IMG/VR virus record: IMGVR_UViG_2585427728_000004
From: a virus
Lineage: Duplodnaviria; Heunggongvirae; Uroviricota; Caudoviricetes
Length of the DNA: 11,946 nt
Reading direction: 5' to 3' (one strand)
This document shows positions 1-11,386 of this stretch, in pieces. Made by a program: the position numbers and the translations under genes. Under the pieces are notes generated by a model. It was not told the origin of the DNA. It did no database searches and saw nothing but the letters and a program-made list of their open reading frames with translations. Position 1 is the stretch's first letter; the number at the start of each line of letters is the position of its first letter.

Positions 1-1368
1 TTACTTCACGGAATATTTTGCCACGGTCGCTTTCGCGCCATGCGCTAATAAAGACAAGTACGTTTCCGTCACTCTTGCAGTAAACAAACTATTGTCTGGC
101 AAATCATCACCAAAGATCGCCTTAATCGCCAGCAATGACTGGACGCGCGCTTTCCCTTCGTCACTACTTTGTACAGCCTTCTGAATAACAGGTAACAGTG
201 GGTCACTGATTTCTATCGGATTTCCCTGTTCATCAACACCACCGACATAACGCATCCAACCCGCGACGCCCAGCGCCAGCAGATCGAACTTGCTGTCATG
301 CGCCAGATGCCAGCGAACAGAATCCAACATCCGCTGTGGCAATTTCTGGCTACCATCCATCGCAATCTGCCAGGTTCGATGACGTAACGCCGGGTTGCTA
401 TAGCGTGCAATTAATCGGTTAGCGTAATCTTGCAAATCAACGCCCTGCACTTTCAACGTCGGCGCTTGTTCCTGCAACATCAAGCCATACGCCGCATAAC
501 GATATTGTTCATCTTCCATACAGTCATTAATGTGCTGATATCCTGCAAGATACCCCAGATACGCCAGGAATGAATGACTGCCGTTGAGCATGCGCAACTT
601 CATCTCTTCATAAGGCAGCACATCGCTAACCAGTTCGGCTCCCGCTTTTTCCCATTCCGGACGTCCGGCAACAAAGTTATCTTCTATTACCCACTGGCGG
701 AAAGGTTCACAGGCAACGCCCGCAGGATCGCCCACACCGGTAAGTTGTTCGATTTTCGCCAGCGTATCCTCTGTCACTGCGGGCACAATACGGTCCACCA
801 TTGTTGATGGGAAAGTCACGTTATCTTCGATCCATTGTGCCAGTTTTACATCAACGGCTTGTGCGTAGGAAGTGACAACGTCACGCATAACATGACCGTT
901 TTCTGGCATGTTGTCACATGACATGACGGTAAATGCGGGAAGTCCTGCCGCTTTACGGCGAGCCAGCGCCTCAACAATCACCCCTGTTGCTGTTTTCGGC
1001 TGGTGGGGATTTTGCACGTCGGCAGCGACCATCGGGTGATCGAGCATTAACTGTCCGGTCGCCGGAGAGTGGAAATACCCTTTTTCGGTGATTGTCAGAG
1101 AGACAATCGCAATTTGCGGTTCACACATCGCAGCCAGCACGGTTTCTAAGCCATCTATTTGTACGTGCAAGGCTTTTTTAACGACGCCAACGACGCGAGC
1201 CGTCCACGCGTCGGCCGACATTTCCGCAACGGTATAAAGATTATCTTGCTGTTGTAAATCGGCAATTTGCTGTTCGCCGCCGATTAAGTTGACCTCATAA
1301 TATCCCCAGTCACTGAAATGTTCCGTAGCAAGAATACAGAGTGCGTATGAGCGCCTGCAGAAGAAGTG
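1..1368 (-). pseudogene. ydfI: Mannitol dehydrogenase family oxidoreductase (UxuB/YdfI-like), 5'-truncated remnant; the ORF-track ORF 1..1221 is its internal-ATG portion
   Basis: The 406-aa ORF aligns with the UxuB family from about residue 85 to the C-terminus ([45 protein letters not shown]). My hand translation of the same frame upstream of the ATG at 1221 continues the homology ([16 protein letters not shown]) up to an in-frame stop at 1369-1371 with no start codon, so the N-terminal Rossmann region is missing. Symbol is inferred from the neighbouring Qin-like prophage. Confidence 0.6.
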
Positions 1369-1930
1369 TTAACACTGTATTTAGAATAATCAGATGCTCC
1401 ACTTCCCGGAGCACCACTGGAACCACCTGAAACAAATGTCATCGAATGGGTATGTGCACCGGCTGAAGCAGCCGTACCGCTAACACTATGGGTATGCGCC
1501 CCGGTGTTATTCGTGGATTTAGTGCCGTAATCAAACGACGATGTGGTTTTCGTACCCAAATCCGTACTGGATGCGCTGGCGCTGTGGGTGTGCGATTTAA
1601 TGCCGTCCTGTTCCTGAGACAATATGGCTCGACCACTGGCGGGCTTGCCCTTAATCGTCCAGCCACGCAAATCAGGGATCACGCCTGACGGATAAGCGGC
1701 AGCAAGTTTCGGGTAGGCAGATTTGTCAAAAGTCTGCCCCTGCATCAGGGCATAACCAGACGGAACGGTATCTGATGGCCACGGGATTGGTGCGCCGACT
1801 GGGTAGCTTTCTGGTGGAAGATTTTTCGAGGTATAAACTTCTGCCCAGTCTTCCTCAAAACCATAGCCATCTCTTGAAGAACGGTAGAACAGACCTCCAT
1901 TTCTGTAATGCGCCTTCATCTGCAGGGTCC
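1338..1930 (-). pseudogene. Side tail fiber protein C-terminal fragment (Stf/gp37-like tip with GAHTHS repeats), lacking its N-terminal part; approximate boundaries
   Basis: ORF 1284..2051 contains [12 protein letters not shown]...[34 protein letters not shown] followed by three GAHTHS repeats typical of lambda Stf/T4 gp37-type fiber tips. The first ~44 codons and last ~17 codons of that ORF are out-of-frame readings of terminase and ydfI DNA respectively. Confidence 0.55.
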
Positions 1931-3339
1931 GGCAACTTCCGACTCCGGTAGCTGGCCGGATCAATTCGCTGGCTCTCCCCGTCGCTGTCACCGCGCAATG
2001 ACTGCGTGATGTTGTAACGATCAATAATCCAGCGTTCGCCACGGCTGCCATAGCCCGTTACCTGAACCACAAAACGGCGATGACGTCCCGCCTGCACATC
2101 CACTGTCGCCACAAGGAAATTAACGCCATCCGGCACACTGCGGGAAGGAACTGGCTCTGCCCGCTGCTCAAGCAATTCACTTTTTCGTTGCTCCATGCTG
2201 GCGCGGGGAAGATAAGGTAATCCCCAGTCGGTATTGATAACCGTCTTGAGTGTCTCTTCACTTCCGGTTGTCTCGTATTCCTGTTCTGCAGTAAGCAGCT
2301 TGTAAACGAGTTGCGAGAGTGTCTGATAAGCAGCTGCCGGACCCTCCATCCAGAATGACGCAATACGTGAACGCCGGGGATCACCATAACGACTGCCATC
2401 TGCATTGATGGATTCACCATCCCGTAACCAGACCCCACGTCCGTTCAGCTCGCGTTTTTGTTCAGGCAAAATCCGTCCTGAACAGGAAGGACACTGAATA
2501 TAAGCCGCCTCACTTGCCAGCACAGGATCGGCAATATCACGGAAACCAGCAACCACATCGCCGCAGGGCTGAAAATACTCACCACAGTGTGGACAGGGCC
2601 AGTACCAGCGACGGCGATCGCCACGGTTATAGAGCGACAGGATCCCCGTGGTTGGTGGAGCCTCATGCGGTGAAGTCCGTCGCCATTTCACATCCTTCAC
2701 ATCCCTGCCGGGGGAACTCTCCACCAGCGTCATACCACTGGACATAAATGTGGTGGTACGTTTTGAGGCAAGAGAGAAGGCATCCCCCTCACCATCAATA
2801 TCTTCCGGAAAACGGTCATAATCCGTCAGCGCCACGCATTTATAATCTGATGAAGACATGATATTGACTGACGGCCAGCCGATTTTCAGGTAGTTGCCAG
2901 CAAGGAATGTTCTGTCATAAACGTTGTTGTCATTTTTGTTCGGACTCAGGCGACTGACCACTTCCGGGCTGACGCGAAACGTTCTGGCGAGTCGTTTTTT
3001 GGAGTGTTCGCGGGCTTTTTCCTCCGTCATCTGAATGATCAGCATATCAGCAGGATCGCAAATCACGTTGTAAATCACCCAGCCGTCAATCAGGCCGATA
3101 GTCTTGCCGGTTCGTGCCGGGCCAACAAATATCACTGCGTCGTATTCACGCGAGGCCAGGCAGTTCATAGGCTCAATAACATACGGTGCCACCAGCGGAT
3201 CCCACGGGACTGAGTTCCCTGCCCCCATGGGCACCCGCATATACTGAGCAACGGCATCAGCAACCCGCATTCGTCTCGGTGCGCGAAGGATATAACCTGA
3301 ATCGGTTCGTGCTGCCTTTGCGGTTTCCTGATTCAGCAT
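1855..3339 (-). CDS. Phage terminase large subunit (lambda GpA family), C-terminally truncated and fused into tail-fiber DNA; probably non-functional
   Basis: 494-aa ORF with Walker-A-like GPARTGKT, the CPHCGE motif and a WIIDRYNI segment matching the lambda gpA nuclease-domain region. Lambda gpA is about 640 aa; homology ends near residue 465 and the frame then runs through tail-fiber sequence to a stop. The start ATG overlaps the upstream stop (TAATG). Confidence 0.75.
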
Positions 3340-5061: not shown

Positions 5062-5233
5062 CATTTCCTCTTTTAGTCTGTTATGACTGTCCTGGTACAC
5101 AGTAGTGTCAATTATATGGAGCAAACGTATAAAAGATAAGATGAAACATCGCAATAATCAACATACGACGGTCTAAATTTCACACAAACAGATAAAGATG
5201 ATTATCATTTATTATCAATGCATTAGAATCAAA

Positions 5234-5530: not shown

Positions 5531-5735
5531 TCATTTTCACTTTCTTAAATCTAACGACAGATGGCTAACATTTAAGTATTGTGAAATATTATCAAATGTA
5601 ATCATCATTGATTTACAAAAGATACATTTTGCCCCGAAAGGATTTCTGTCAGAAACATCAAAAGATGATGTTCTATACTGAGAACCATGGCAACACGGGC
5701 ATCTAAAGTGAATATGGTTTGTAATATTTTCTACC

Positions 5736-5948
5736 TCAAAGTGCCACTACATGAACAGCTGCAGGGCCTTTAGGTCCGTTCTCAATACCAAATTCGACTT
5801 CCTGATTCTCAGTTAACGTTTTGAAATCGTTGCTCTGAATAGCTGAGAAATGCACAAACACATCTTTGCTACCATCTTTCGGCGTGATGAAACCAAAACC
5901 TTTTTCAGGGTTAAACCATTTCACTAAACCAGTCATTTTGTTAGACAT
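5736..5948 (-). CDS. cspI: Cold shock protein CspA family (70 aa), CspI-like
   Basis: [70 protein letters not shown] carries the RNP1/RNP2 motifs (KGFGFI, VFVHF) of cold shock proteins; AAGG Shine-Dalgarno and a long AT-rich leader lie upstream. Confidence 0.9.
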
Positions 5949-6311
5949 CATTATTACCTTTTGAAGAAGTTAGCCCTTGGGCAGAATGGTCCGAAAAAAA
6001 ATATCAGAAAGAAAAACCAACAAGGAAATCTCAAGAGGTACAAATAATAAAATTATAACAATGACTGCTTCAGATAATTTTGTAACAAACCAGAACACCA
6101 TTAACGCATGATTAACCAACCATAGCAAGGATTACTTTTGTAAAGAAAAACACACGAATGAAACAATAGCTTTATTTATTAATAAAACGTGTCATTCTGT
6201 CTAATGACCTTTTATCTTACCCTTAAGATTTCAAGGATTTTGACTCATGGAAGAGTCCTTTTTATTTAAATTTCACATTCAGCGCTAAAAATAATCCGAT
6301 TTAATATTAAT

Positions 6312-7334
<1,023 letters not shown>

Positions 7335-7338
<4 letters not shown>

Positions 7339-7650: not shown

Positions 7651-7866
7651 TTACTCTCCTCTCGCAGCCTTACGCCTGTCTTCTTTAATCTTGAAATAAA
7701 GATTTGTCAGATACGTCAGCATGCCAAATACCAGACTACCCAATACACCTATTGCCGCCCACTGTGAGGGCGTGACTTTATCGAGCAACTGTAAAAACCA
7801 GTAGCCAGCACTGCCTGCAGAGGTGCTGTAGGCGATGCCCGTTGTTAACTTATCCATGGATTTCAT
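7651..7866 (-). CDS. essQ: Pinholin, phage 21 S21-like class II holin with dual-start motif (71 aa)
   Basis: [71 protein letters not shown] has two transmembrane segments and a charged C-terminus; GGAGGTGA Shine-Dalgarno upstream. The ORF-track extension to 7950 is read-through. Confidence 0.85.
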
Positions 7867-7954: not shown

Positions 7955-7987
7955 TCAAAAAGAAAAACGCCAGCAATTATTCTGGCG
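7955..7987 (-). terminator. Candidate intrinsic terminator between the AraC-family gene and the holin
   Basis: Plus strand aaaaaCGCCAGcaattattCTGGCG; on the minus strand CGCCAG-aauaauug-CUGGCG is followed by UUUUUCUUUUU. Confidence 0.45.
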
Positions 7988-8056
7988 TAGCTAAAAATAT
8001 CGTATAATCTTACACTTCAAAAAATAACTTTATAAAATACCATCACATCATATCTT

Positions 8057-8770
8057 CTAAGAAAATCTTGATAAATATTGGTGCGGAGGCACACCAAAAT
8101 ATCCTCTAAAAACACTTACAAAATATGATGCATTGTCATACCCGCATATTCCCGCCACCTTGCCGACAGTATGGTTACTGTAGATCAATAATCTTTGCGC
8201 CATCATCATTCGTTCTTCAAGAATTAATTTACTAAACGATAATCCTTCGTCTTTTAATTTTCTTTTTAACAAACTCTCGCTCATATATAATCTTGAAGAT
8301 ATATCACAAAGTCTCCATGACGCAGAGATATCCGAGTGAATAATAGCCTTAACTTTACAACCTAAGCTATTAAGACTTCCGAACAAAAAACTTTGCACTA
8401 TTTTCTCTGAAGATAAGACAGCAAGACATGCAAGTGATATTTGATTTCTAACTACATCCACGGTTTTGCTATCACAATTCAAGCATGCAACCAAGTTCTT
8501 TAACAATGAAAAATCTTCACATTCTACTATCAAGTATGACGGATAAAACCTTCTTACAGAAAAAGGTGAGAGTGTGTAGTTTTTAAAGAAATCATTAACT
8601 GTTTTCTCCTCAACATCTACGATCATTAGATGATCTGTATTTGACGAAAAAAGATCTTTTAAATTGTATTCAATGAGGACAGCATTTCCTTTTTTAAACA
8701 AAATATCTTCTTTACCAATTCGGACACCAAACGAGTTCAACACCAAAATGATAGAACATATGTATGGCAT
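8057..8770 (-). CDS. AraC/XylS-family transcriptional regulator (AppY/Rns-like size class, 237 aa from the ATG at 8770)
   Basis: C-terminal double HTH typical of AraC family (LLKRKLKDEGLSFSKLILEERMMMAQRLL...VGKVAGICGYDNASYFVSVFRGYFGVPPHQY). AGGTGG Shine-Dalgarno 5 nt before the ATG at 8770; the ORF-track start at 8779 is GTG. The gene and its ~400-bp upstream region are visibly AT-rich. Confidence 0.85.
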   Translation of the reverse strand: MPYICSIILVLNSFGVRIGKEDILFKKGNAVLIEYNLKDLFSSNTDHLMIVDVEEKTVNDFFKNYTLSPFSVRRFYPSYLIVECEDFSLLKNLVACLNCDSKTVDVVRNQISLACLAVLSSEKIVQSFLFGSLNSLGCKVKAIIHSDISASWRLCDISSRLYMSESLLKRKLKDEGLSFSKLILEERMMMAQRLLIYSNHTVGKVAGICGYDNASYFVSVFRGYFGVPPHQYLSRFS

Positions 8771-9176
8771 ATTATCCACCTGATATCATTGGGGTTACAC
8801 CAGGTAAGTATAGGTGGAAAATCAATATTCGCCAGTTCAACAATAAGGAAAATCTCATTGCATCACAACTATAAAACCATGTGTTTAACTCACAAAAAAC
8901 AAATCATTAAACTAATCTGTTATATTATAATAGCTGCGTGCAATAATAATATTATATGCTCTTAATATTCACTTGAAATATCTTCATATAAAAACAGATT
9001 GAATAAAATCTTTTGGGGCTGGTATGTTTACCAACATTAAATTGCATCTCAATGTTTTCTTTAGCGTGAACAGGATTTTTATAAAAACTGACACTATGAG
9101 CATCATAGCGTAGTTTTTACGATTGTAAATATCCTGCATACAGGAACTCATCACTTTCAGATGATATCGCATACAG
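8771..9176 (-). promoter_or_regulatory. AT-rich leader/promoter region of the AraC-family gene; candidate nucleoid-protein (H-NS-type) silencing target
   Basis: About 400 bp of very AT-rich non-coding DNA between two minus-strand genes. The only ORF here (8984..9172) is low-complexity with no ribosome-binding site. No specific promoter hexamers assigned. Confidence 0.3.
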
Positions 9177-10136
9177 TTAATTCACCATCAGTCTTAGAGC
9201 CAGTTCTTCCGGATAGGGATCGAAGTAGTTCTGTGTAAGCAAGTAATCATTAGGATACTCACCCAGATAATGCTTCAGCAGAGTCAACGGCGCAAGAAGA
9301 GGCAATGTGCCAAAGCGATAGTTAAGTATAACCTCGCTCAACTCTTTACGCTGGCGTGTACTTAAGTAATTACTAAAATACCCCTGTATATGCATCAGCA
9401 CATTCGTGTGATTTTTACGTGATGCTGGTTTTCTGAGAATCGCCATCAGATTATCACGATACACCTCAAAGTATGATTCAAGGTCCGCCCACTCGTGTAT
9501 TGCAGCCACAAATGGTCCCATATCTTTATAGCCTGCCTGGCTATGCGCCAACAACTGAAGCTTATAACGACTATGAAAAGCTAATAACTCTCTTCTTGAT
9601 AATTTCTCCTTGTAAAGGTGATTGAGCTCATGCAAAGCAAAAACTCTTTCAATAAAATTCTCACGAAGCACTGGATCATGTAATCGCCCATCCTCTTCAA
9701 CCGGTAGCCAGGAAAACTTTTCCATCAAAGTGCTCGTAAATAGTCCCACTCCATCTTTACGACCTCGATTACCATTTTCATCATAGACACGCACGCGCTC
9801 CATGCCACAGCTGGGAGATTTAGCACAAACCACAAACCCCGATACATCCTTTAATTTGTCCATATAAGAACGACTAAACTCTGTCATTCTCTCTGTCACA
9901 TCCTCATTCTGGTCGTGGCTGAAACACATCCGTATATTTCCTTGCTTCGAGCGCACAAGTCGTAGAGCAGGACGCGGAACTGGCAGCCCTATAGCCATTT
10001 CCGGACATACTGGTCTGAATGTTACCCATTCCACTAATTTGTCCATTAAAAAGTCATCTCTTTTGTGACCACCATCAAAACGAACAGCAGAACCGCCCAA
10101 ACAACCGCTGATCCCAATCACAGGTTTTTTTATCAT
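9177..10136 (-). CDS. DUF523/DUF1722 fusion protein (TudS-like putative [4Fe-4S] thionucleobase desulfidase with YbgA-like domain)
   Basis: N-terminal MIKKPVIGISGCLGGSAVRFDGGHKRD with three spaced cysteines (GISGC, PVCPE, SPSCG) as in DUF523/TudS; the C-terminal half resembles DUF1722 (YbgA). Strong GGGGGAGGAA Shine-Dalgarno 4 nt upstream of the ATG. Confidence 0.8.
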   Translation of the reverse strand: MIKKPVIGISGCLGGSAVRFDGGHKRDDFLMDKLVEWVTFRPVCPEMAIGLPVPRPALRLVRSKQGNIRMCFSHDQNEDVTERMTEFSRSYMDKLKDVSGFVVCAKSPSCGMERVRVYDENGNRGRKDGVGLFTSTLMEKFSWLPVEEDGRLHDPVLRENFIERVFALHELNHLYKEKLSRRELLAFHSRYKLQLLAHSQAGYKDMGPFVAAIHEWADLESYFEVYRDNLMAILRKPASRKNHTNVLMHIQGYFSNYLSTRQRKELSEVILNYRFGTLPLLAPLTLLKHYLGEYPNDYLLTQNYFDPYPEELALRLMVN

Positions 10137-10328
10137 TTCCTCCCCCTTGACTAATTCATTAACACATAAACTTTGTAGTGCACGGACTAAATTGCCTTTC
10201 TGGCTTCATCACTGACAATTTTTCTGTTATTGACTATTCCTAATATAGTAGGAAAGTTCTTTAAGTGATCGGTCGTACTCATCTATCTTTCATACTTACT
10301 CTCAACTATCAAAAGTACAGGATTTATT
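10137..10328. promoter_or_regulatory. Divergent intergenic region between the DUF523/DUF1722 gene and the lipocalin gene; presumed to hold both promoters
   Basis: 192-bp gap between divergently oriented starts; contains TTGACT- and TATAGT-like hexamers but no confident -35/-10 pairing by eye. Confidence 0.3.
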
Positions 10329-10853: not shown

Positions 10854-10881
10854 AATCCCCACCCGAAATGATACTTATTAG

Positions 10882-10908
10882 AAAAAAACCAGCCTTTGGG
10901 GAGGCTGG
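10882..10908 (-). terminator. Intrinsic terminator ~100 nt downstream of the Q gene (tR'-like candidate)
   Basis: Plus strand gaaaaaaaCCAGCCTttggggAGGCTGG; on the minus strand a 7-bp GC-rich stem with 6-nt loop is followed by UUUUUUUU. No T-run follows on the plus strand, so it is unidirectional. Confidence 0.5.
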
Positions 10909-11008
10909 CTAAATCAGGAAACAAGCTGTTATATGATAATAACTACGTTGCGATTCCAACATTTAAAATGTTAGACTAATGAAAATCAGACAGCAACTTT
11001 TCCTTTAA

Positions 11009-11386
11009 TTATTTCGAACAATCAGCATCCATCTCCAATCGGAGATCCAACACCATCAGCATGCCCTCCACTACGCCCTCAGCTTTCTGGAGCATCCTGC
11101 CAACCCAACAATCAGATCGCCCATGCTTACGTGCAAGCGCCATAAAAGTCATGCCGCCGACATAATAGTCCACCAATAAATCATGTAAATCGCTGTTGTT
11201 TTTTTTCAGGCGAGCCATACATTCACAAATGATCATCGCGTCATCGTCACAGCATTGCGGACGAGATCTTACTTTTGAAGGAATTAATCCCTTAAAACCG
11301 GCGGCAATGGACGACCAGGTCACATCTTCATGATTATTAGCCGCCCATGCCCCCCAACGCTCAAGAACCATCTGAATATCACGCAT
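11009..11386 (-). CDS. Late-gene antitermination protein Q (short QuuD/phage-82-type, ~125 aa)
   Basis: [24 protein letters not shown]...[18 protein letters not shown]... matches the short Q antiterminator family with its cysteine cluster; GGAG Shine-Dalgarno 9 nt before the ATG at 11386. The ORF-track start at 11401 is TTG. Confidence 0.75.

Follow-up and report, generated by a model that had tools for sequence, protein, structure and literature searches.

Why would a phage erase 4-thiouridine (s4U) from transfer RNA (tRNA)? The question is raised by a gene at 9177..10136, on the minus strand of an 11,946-nt stretch of viral DNA (Caudoviricetes; IMG/VR record IMGVR_UViG_2585427728_000004; "the window" below means this whole stretch). 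We consider it very probable that the gene product is RudS, a tRNA s4U desulfidase, that the gene is cargo of a lambdoid late operon, and that it would be transcribed mainly by Q-dependent read-through after prophage induction. Fusions of the TudS and DUF1722 domains have been named RudS and described as [4Fe-4S] desulfidases that convert s4U in tRNA to uridine (Jamontas et al., Nucleic Acids Res 2024, PMC11417400).

A preliminary description of the stretch, made from its letters alone, had called the gene prophage-borne. This was right: the window is 100% identical to chromosomal DNA of E. coli strains ET881 and SW071610, where it belongs to a Qin-type lambdoid prophage. The idea of the enzyme in that description is already published, down to a phage allele 92% identical to the window protein, and the description is a correct rediscovery of it. 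On the enzyme itself we add little, RudS and its phage-lineage allele having been characterised in 2024. What deserves attention is the place of the gene in the phage genome, since our search of the literature for prophages in connection with RudS, DUF1722 or s4U found no paper that describes a role in phages.

The enzyme and its substrate

The gene, its two domains and the codons of the predicted active site (each codon was checked) lie as follows.

9177..10136, minus strand: rudS coding sequence, 319 amino acids (aa); exact open reading frame (ORF), 92% gapless identity to RudS_vir (phage 1H12 gp66)
9690..10118, minus strand: TudS/DUF523 catalytic domain, residues 7-149; PF04463 (2-thiouracil desulfurase), E-value 5.8e-40, match 1-141 of 141
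9210..9563, minus strand: DUF1722 (YbgA-like) helical domain, residues 192-309; PF08349, E-value 9.4e-40, match 1-117 of 117
10101-10103, minus strand: codon of Cys12, predicted cluster ligand
10005-10007, minus strand: codon of Cys44, predicted cluster ligand
9807-9809, minus strand: codon of Cys110, predicted cluster ligand
9999-10001, minus strand: codon of Glu46, predicted catalytic residue
9972-9974, minus strand: codon of Arg55, predicted catalytic residue
9816-9818, minus strand: codon of Ser107, predicted catalytic residue
9810-9812, minus strand: codon of Ser109, predicted catalytic residue

The ORF starts with ATG, 5 nt behind a GGAGG ribosome-binding site, and the strand opposite to it holds only two ORFs, each of at most 54 aa. 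Both Pfam matches are far above the curated cut-offs. The three spaced cysteines of a DUF523 domain, noticed in the preliminary description, are Cys12, Cys44 and Cys110, and the YbgA-like character that it ascribed to the C-terminal half holds as well, with 49% identity between this half and YbgA of E. coli K-12 over 152 residues (E-value 2e-52). Its remark that ybgA stands immediately upstream of the photolyase gene phr in K-12 is also correct; ybgA overlaps the phr start.

The closest characterised relative is RudS_vir of Escherichia phage 1H12 (gp66, YP_009909557), which has the same length of 319 aa, the same three cysteines and no gap in the alignment (293/319 residues identical); the two alleles differ by 26 substitutions. 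The ratio of nonsynonymous to synonymous substitution rates (dN/dS) between them is 0.135, which points to purifying selection; against chromosomal homologs no usable value was obtained, since synonymous sites are saturated. RudS_KT (P. putida PP_0741) and RudS_ST (Salmonella STM1389/ORF319) share with the window protein the two-domain architecture, the cluster cysteines and the catalytic Glu, Ser, Ser and Arg. They are encoded on chromosomes near light regulators of the MerR/LitR type and photolyase or light-stress operons, whereas rudS of the window has no MerR gene beside it and is set in a phage late operon.

We compared the window protein by alignment with 140 representatives of the family, all of full length and 35-56% identical to it. 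Positions conserved in at least 95% of them, all of which are kept in the window protein, are Cys12, Arg19, Cys44-Pro45-Glu46, Gly50, Pro54-Arg55 and Ser107-Pro108-Ser109-Cys110-Gly111; conservation of the three cluster cysteines is 97-99%. The window protein has Cys71 and Cys104 besides, the latter shared by only 8% of the representatives. Cys12, Cys44 and Cys110 align on Cys10, Cys43 and Cys104 of the TudS crystal structure 6Z92, and in the sequence alignment the C-P-E motif (Cys44-Glu46) and the S-P-S-C-G motif (Ser107-Gly111) match Cys43-Glu45 and Ser101-Cys104 of TudS. The cysteines carry the same numbers in RudS_vir and RudS_ST (Table 1 of PMC11417400). By cysteine spacing, Glu51, Arg60, Ser111 and Ser113 of RudS_KT correspond to Glu46, Arg55, Ser107 and Ser109, and its Arg24-Tyr25-Asn26 to Arg19-Phe20-Asp21. 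RudS_KT mutated at Cys, Glu, Ser or Arg was inactive, and its Y25F variant was as active as the wild type (PMC11417400). The tRNA contacts Ser243 and Arg244 of RudS_KT are, judging by spacing, probably Ser239 and Arg240 here; this pair is invariant in 28 enterobacterial homologs, while among the 140 representatives 82% have Thr or Ser (28% have Ser) at the first position and 57% have Arg at the next.

A comparison of a predicted structure with TudS, as the preliminary description had advised, gives the same picture. The AlphaFold2 model (predicted local distance difference test, pLDDT, 71.9; predicted template modelling score 0.73) has an alpha/beta N-terminal domain and an all-helical C-terminal one. 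All five significant Foldseek matches to it in the PDB are TudS chains (probability 1.0, target template modelling score 0.61-0.64, 26-27% identity), and TudS is also the sole match in a sequence search of the PDB (E-value 8e-4). For the DUF1722 half, Foldseek against the PDB found no similar solved structure; in the published RudS model this domain binds the anticodon arm of tRNA (PMC11417400).

Because of the 92% identity to RudS_vir and the retention of all key residues, we assign RudS chemistry to the window protein, a chemistry established for its TudS and RudS relatives (PMC11417400). The gene is intact and its product, as far as can be read from the residues, is almost certainly an active RudS. 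In such an enzyme Cys12, Cys44 and Cys110 would hold a cubane cluster with the fourth iron available to the sulfur of a flipped-out s4U8. Glu46, placed by Arg55, Ser107 and Ser109, would activate a water molecule to attack C4, upon which sulfide would be released and uridine left, with the helical DUF1722 domain gripping the tRNA by its anticodon arm.

As for the substrate, six RudS orthologs, RudS_vir included, decreased tRNA s4U 4.7- to 26-fold when expressed in E. coli, and stand-alone TudS or YbgA left it unaffected; conversion of s4U to U in tRNA was demonstrated in vitro for RudS_KT and in vivo for RudS_vir, and overexpression of RudS_KT reduced the growth delay induced by ultraviolet A (UVA) light (PMC11417400). 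The main substrate of RudS is tRNA s4U and not free thionucleobases, because no RudS acted like TudS on free bases. The class proposed in the preliminary description, a TudS-type [4Fe-4S] desulfidase, is borne out by the full set of ligands and catalytic residues, and only the choice of thionucleobases as the main target has to be given up. An assay with 2-thiouracil, also suggested there, is expected to fail, since RudS proteins never supported growth on this compound. The further thought that the enzyme acts on 4-thiouridine in tRNA and on the near-ultraviolet response agrees with what has been demonstrated for the family, the 92%-identical phage allele included (PMC11417400).

Two simpler identities were considered and rejected. 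K-12 YbgA (b0707) is a stand-alone DUF1722 protein without a catalytic domain; the NCBIfam YbgA equivalog (NF007549) covers only residues 161-315 of the window protein, with a score of 189 below its cut-off of 237, and DUF1722 is not the sole domain here. TudS (an uncultured-bacterium DUF523 protein; PDB 6Z92, 6Z93 and 6Z96) resembles the window protein in N-terminal fold and active site and takes free 2-thiouracil, free 4-thiouracil and 4-thio-UMP as substrates. It is a single domain of ∼166 aa, however, and a stand-alone TudS of ∼150-170 aa does not fit a protein of 319 aa to which DUF1722 is added. The RefSeq entry identical to the window protein, WP_000592549.1, is labelled "YbgA family" or "DUF523 and DUF1722 domain-containing protein"; the former name undersells the protein and hides its predicted catalytic function.

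A cassette between Q and the holin gene

In the window rudS is the middle gene of a three-gene cassette (blc-like, rudS, AraC-like) bounded by the Q and holin genes of a defective Qin-type prophage adjoining ydfI. On the minus strand the order is DUF968 (ydfU-like), Q, the blc-like gene (itself on the plus strand), rudS, the AraC-family regulator, holin, ydfR, lysozyme and Rz. Genes and signals around rudS are listed in the direction of late transcription.

11009..11386, minus strand: gene of a Q-family late antiterminator, adjoining the cassette on its upstream side; PF06530, E-value 8e-51
10968..10996, minus strand: putative late promoter pR', TTGCTG-17 nt-TAACAT; tentative, conserved in 5 alleles
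10881..10910, minus strand: terminator hairpin with T-run, putative tR', ∼100 nt past the Q stop codon
10329..10853, plus strand: gene of a blc-like outer-membrane lipocalin lipoprotein; PF08212, E-value 7.5e-43; opposite to late transcription
9111-9091, minus strand: terminator-like hairpin after rudS
8057..8770, minus strand: gene of an AraC-family (YdeO/GadX-like) regulator, last in the cassette; Pfam HTH_18 and HTH_AraC; GC content 33%
7967..7988, minus strand: terminator-like hairpin between the AraC-like and holin genes
7651..7866, minus strand: holin gene (essD-type), downstream end of the cassette; PF04971

Lysis and structural genes of lambdoid phages are transcribed from pR' by Q-modified polymerase, and expression of cargo in the slot between Q and S depends on Q antitermination after induction; the stx genes of Stx phages are the example. 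The cassette occupies the same slot as stx, with rudS on the same strand, after Q, pR' and tR' and before the holin gene, although in place of a toxin it carries an eraser of a tRNA modification, a lipocalin and a regulator. The promoter-like site and the strong hairpin look like a lambdoid pR'/tR' pair, and the segment from Q to blc has a mean column identity of 96% over five alleles. Since rudS lies on the late strand between Q and the holin gene, past the putative pR'/tR', we infer that it would be transcribed mainly when Q lets polymerase pass tR' after induction, as with stx; in functional phages this position means that it must be co-transcribed with the late genes. RudS would then lower host tRNA s4U during lytic growth. 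The connection between rudS and prophage induction, which the preliminary description had offered as a conjecture, is plausible, and the late-operon position and the recurrence of the gene in three phage lineages (below) speak for it.

The cassette was found between Q and the holin gene in every E. coli example that we opened. Beyond the window these were three further prophages, which differ in chromosomal site or replication module (four prophage backbones in all), some 40 contigs of IMG/VR, and two free temperate phages, 1H12 and IdasGreatGrand. In 1H12 the set is the same as in the window (Q, blc, rudS, the AraC-like gene, holin), and it is carried there by a viable phage and not by a defective prophage.

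Other regulatory signals were sought near rudS. A crude scan returned no sigma-70-like promoter at its threshold in the 192-bp spacer between blc and rudS (10137-10328), where weak candidates only can be seen by eye. No SOS (LexA) box is present near rudS, the sole CTGT-N8-ACAG match in the window being far off, at 5087-5102. A perfect dyad, TTCCTA-N6-TAGGAA, is situated at 10237-10254 on the minus strand, ∼100 bp before the rudS start; it is intact in 3 of 5 alleles, and one substitution breaks it in the other two.

The partners of rudS in the cassette can be characterised as well. The lipocalin scores 312 bits in the NCBIfam Blc subfamily (cut-off 267) and is a paralogue of the core K-12 Blc, with 59% identity. 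The best NCBIfam matches of the AraC-like regulator are YdeO, which comes first, GadX and HilD, each under its cut-off. Its gene evolves faster than rudS (dN/dS 0.22; 76% aa identity to the 1H12 counterpart by tblastn). The regulator is reminiscent of the prophage acid-resistance regulators AppY and, from enterohaemorrhagic E. coli (EHEC), PatE, PsrA and PsrB.

Occurrence in other phages and in E. coli

Viral contigs were scanned by alignment with closer homologs, a procedure that may miss phage RudS below ∼55% identity. Besides the E. coli type with its Q-to-holin cassette, IMG/VR contains two further RudS architectures, and in all three rudS is on the strand of the lytic transcript. In the Morganellaceae type (contigs L057-L074 of our set, e.g. 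L058:4356-9283) RudS is 57-59% identical to that of the window. Q is followed there by a promoter-like site, a terminator hairpin and then, as the first gene, that of RudS, with holin, lysozyme and Rz downstream; the hairpin after Q in L058 is analogous to the putative tR' of the window. These contigs have a low GC content and flanks that match phages of Proteus, Providencia and Morganella. At some of these loci a csp-like gene and tRNA genes are situated between rudS and holin. In one contig a Blc-like ORF (L071:5976-6485, 54% identity) directly follows the divergent RudS, so the pairing of RudS with a lipocalin recurs.

In the Citrobacter/Salmonella type (L050-L055, e.g. L051:3985-8796) RudS is 72% identical to that of the window, 99.7% to Citrobacter proteins and 98% to a protein of Salmonella Derby. 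Here the gene belongs to an early-right region with the order PerC, DUF977, rudS, dinI, RusA, DUF968, Q. Ahead of it stands a promoter-like palindrome, the 7-bp inverted repeat AATGATA/TATCATT, and a clean terminator follows it. A canonical LexA box in L051 was considered as an element of rudS and rejected, as it fronts the neighbouring dinI.

Non-phage homologs, 70-76% identical, are found beside MerR/MlrA-like regulators. In Citrobacter braakii and Pectobacterium (L004-L006 and L014; RudS at 6001-6960 or 8001-8960) a tight gene cluster ends with RudS, which is preceded by SnoaL, SDR, amine oxidase, DUF1365, cyclopropane-fatty-acid-synthase-like, DUF2878, an unannotated 175-aa protein and a DUF3833 lipoprotein; in Pectobacterium a MerR/MlrA-like regulator stands ahead of the cluster. 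We asked whether the phage lipocalin is a homologue of the DUF3833 lipoprotein or of the 175-aa protein; a comparison of the sequences showed no similarity to either. At a Salmonella Derby locus (L011:6285-9814) RudS is encoded between ttcA, the gene of tRNA 2-thiocytidine synthetase, and a phage DUF1367 gene. In K-12 the Rac prophage presumably lies beside ttcA, and the arrangement suggests that the Derby locus is another prophage remnant.

Among complete E. coli genomes 1136 of 5426 (∼20%) contain a rudS match, nearly always chromosomal, and 1064 of these 1136 carriers hold at least 80% of its length; some genomes have insertion sequences (IS) within the cassette. About one complete E. coli genome in five, then, has a full-length prophage rudS. 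The literature has it otherwise: E. coli is said to be devoid of RudS both in the RudS paper (PMC11417400) and in an MMBR review of 2026. That statement is true for K-12 and B strains and not for the species. Given this prevalence, near-ultraviolet comparisons of E. coli with other enterobacteria depend on the strain chosen. Nico21(DE3), a BL21(DE3)-derived strain (H70, NZ_CP053600.1, 1589699-1589845), contains no more of rudS than a 147-bp remnant of the 5' end, under the annotation "2-thiouracil desulfurase family protein". A dead rudS fragment is accordingly present in the expression host of the RudS assays.

Alternative roles and the state of the window prophage

Several observations weigh against a RudS that acts on tRNA and is expressed on induction. 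The putative pR' agrees weakly with the consensus and falls below the promoter-scan threshold, and the cassette closes with a terminator-like hairpin typical of an independently expressed moron, which makes expression in the lysogen possible. The prophage of the window is defective (truncated terminase, frameshifted lysozyme), and for this reason induction-linked expression of rudS may not occur in an ET881-type strain. Confidence of the AlphaFold2 model is only moderate, with pLDDT under 50 for the loop 13-27; the matching loop is described as mobile in the RudS paper (PMC11417400). Finally, tRNA desulfidation by RudS_vir was below that expected from its protein level (PMC11417400), and this lowish tRNA activity, together with a short lag on 4-thiouracil, may indicate a looser substrate preference.

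The last point also supports a TudS-like role, in which the protein would mainly salvage free 4-thiouracil or 4-thio-UMP and leave tRNA modification aside. A uracil auxotroph with RudS grew on 4-thiouracil after a lag, which was shortest for RudS_vir among the RudS tested, and the catalytic domain of the window protein is TudS-like. We nevertheless find salvage highly improbable: none of the RudS equalled TudS in the auxotroph assay and 2-thiouracil was never used, six of six lowered tRNA s4U where stand-alone TudS did not (PMC11417400), and the DUF1722 domain is kept under purifying selection. It is likewise improbable that rudS is inert baggage in the window strain, unexpressed, unselected and without effect. 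For this reading speak the defects of the prophage (its terminase is truncated and fused to a tail-fibre fragment, its lysozyme gene is frameshifted and, relative to strain H2, the region from ydfJ to the portal gene is deleted), the rudS remnant of B-type laboratory strains and the IS insertions mentioned above. Against it, the ORF is unbroken, keeps all catalytic residues and has a low dN/dS, most carrier genomes retain at least 80% of the gene, and Q and the region from Q to rudS are intact and conserved.

A more serious alternative, which we hold possible if somewhat doubtful, is that the same enzyme serves lysogenic conversion, made from its own, possibly activator-dependent promoter and sparing the host the UVA growth delay by keeping s4U low. 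The cassette has features of a moron (GC content of 31-44% versus ∼50% in the flanking phage DNA, hairpins after both rudS and the AraC-like gene), a regulator is co-inherited with rudS, and rudS stays intact in defective prophages such as that of the window. The palindrome and terminator around rudS of the Citrobacter/Salmonella type and the UVA effect of RudS_KT overexpression fit this role as well. Two facts speak against it, namely that the scan of the spacer upstream of rudS gave no sigma-70-like promoter, and that strand and position guarantee co-transcription with the late genes in functional phages.

If RudS is instead late-operon cargo made on induction, it may benefit the phage. It could be imagined that in three or more enterobacterial lineages lambdoid phages have repeatedly put an s4U eraser into their lytic operons. 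RudS made on induction would strip s4U8 from host tRNA, and when sunlight (ultraviolet B together with UVA) sets off induction, UVA-driven s4U8-C13 crosslinks, a build-up of uncharged tRNA and the guanosine tetraphosphate (ppGpp) response would then no longer throttle phage protein synthesis. It would also follow that the prophages of a wild E. coli strain influence its tRNA s4U level and near-ultraviolet physiology. We rate this extended scenario as unlikely. The induction-cargo slot and the divergent RudS in other lytic operons turn the question of why a phage would erase s4U into a testable one, for which phages such as 1H12 are suitable.

The decay of the window prophage can be traced in its other parts. 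Positions 1-3339 make up a deletion junction, in which ydfI, a truncated pseudogene by annotation, runs directly into a tail-fibre fragment and then into a large terminase without its C-terminus; ydfJ, ynfT, ydfK, pinQ and the portal gene, all found in strain H2, are missing from the window. The lysozyme gene rrrQ (6806-7338, minus strand, 533 bp) is split by the frameshift into ORFs of 129 and 66 aa and is intact in H2. No tRNA genes were detected in the window, and the sole Rfam match is a cspA thermoregulator at 5690-6095 on the minus strand (111 bits, E-value 2.8e-28), which covers the 5' leader and the start of the cold-shock gene cspI.

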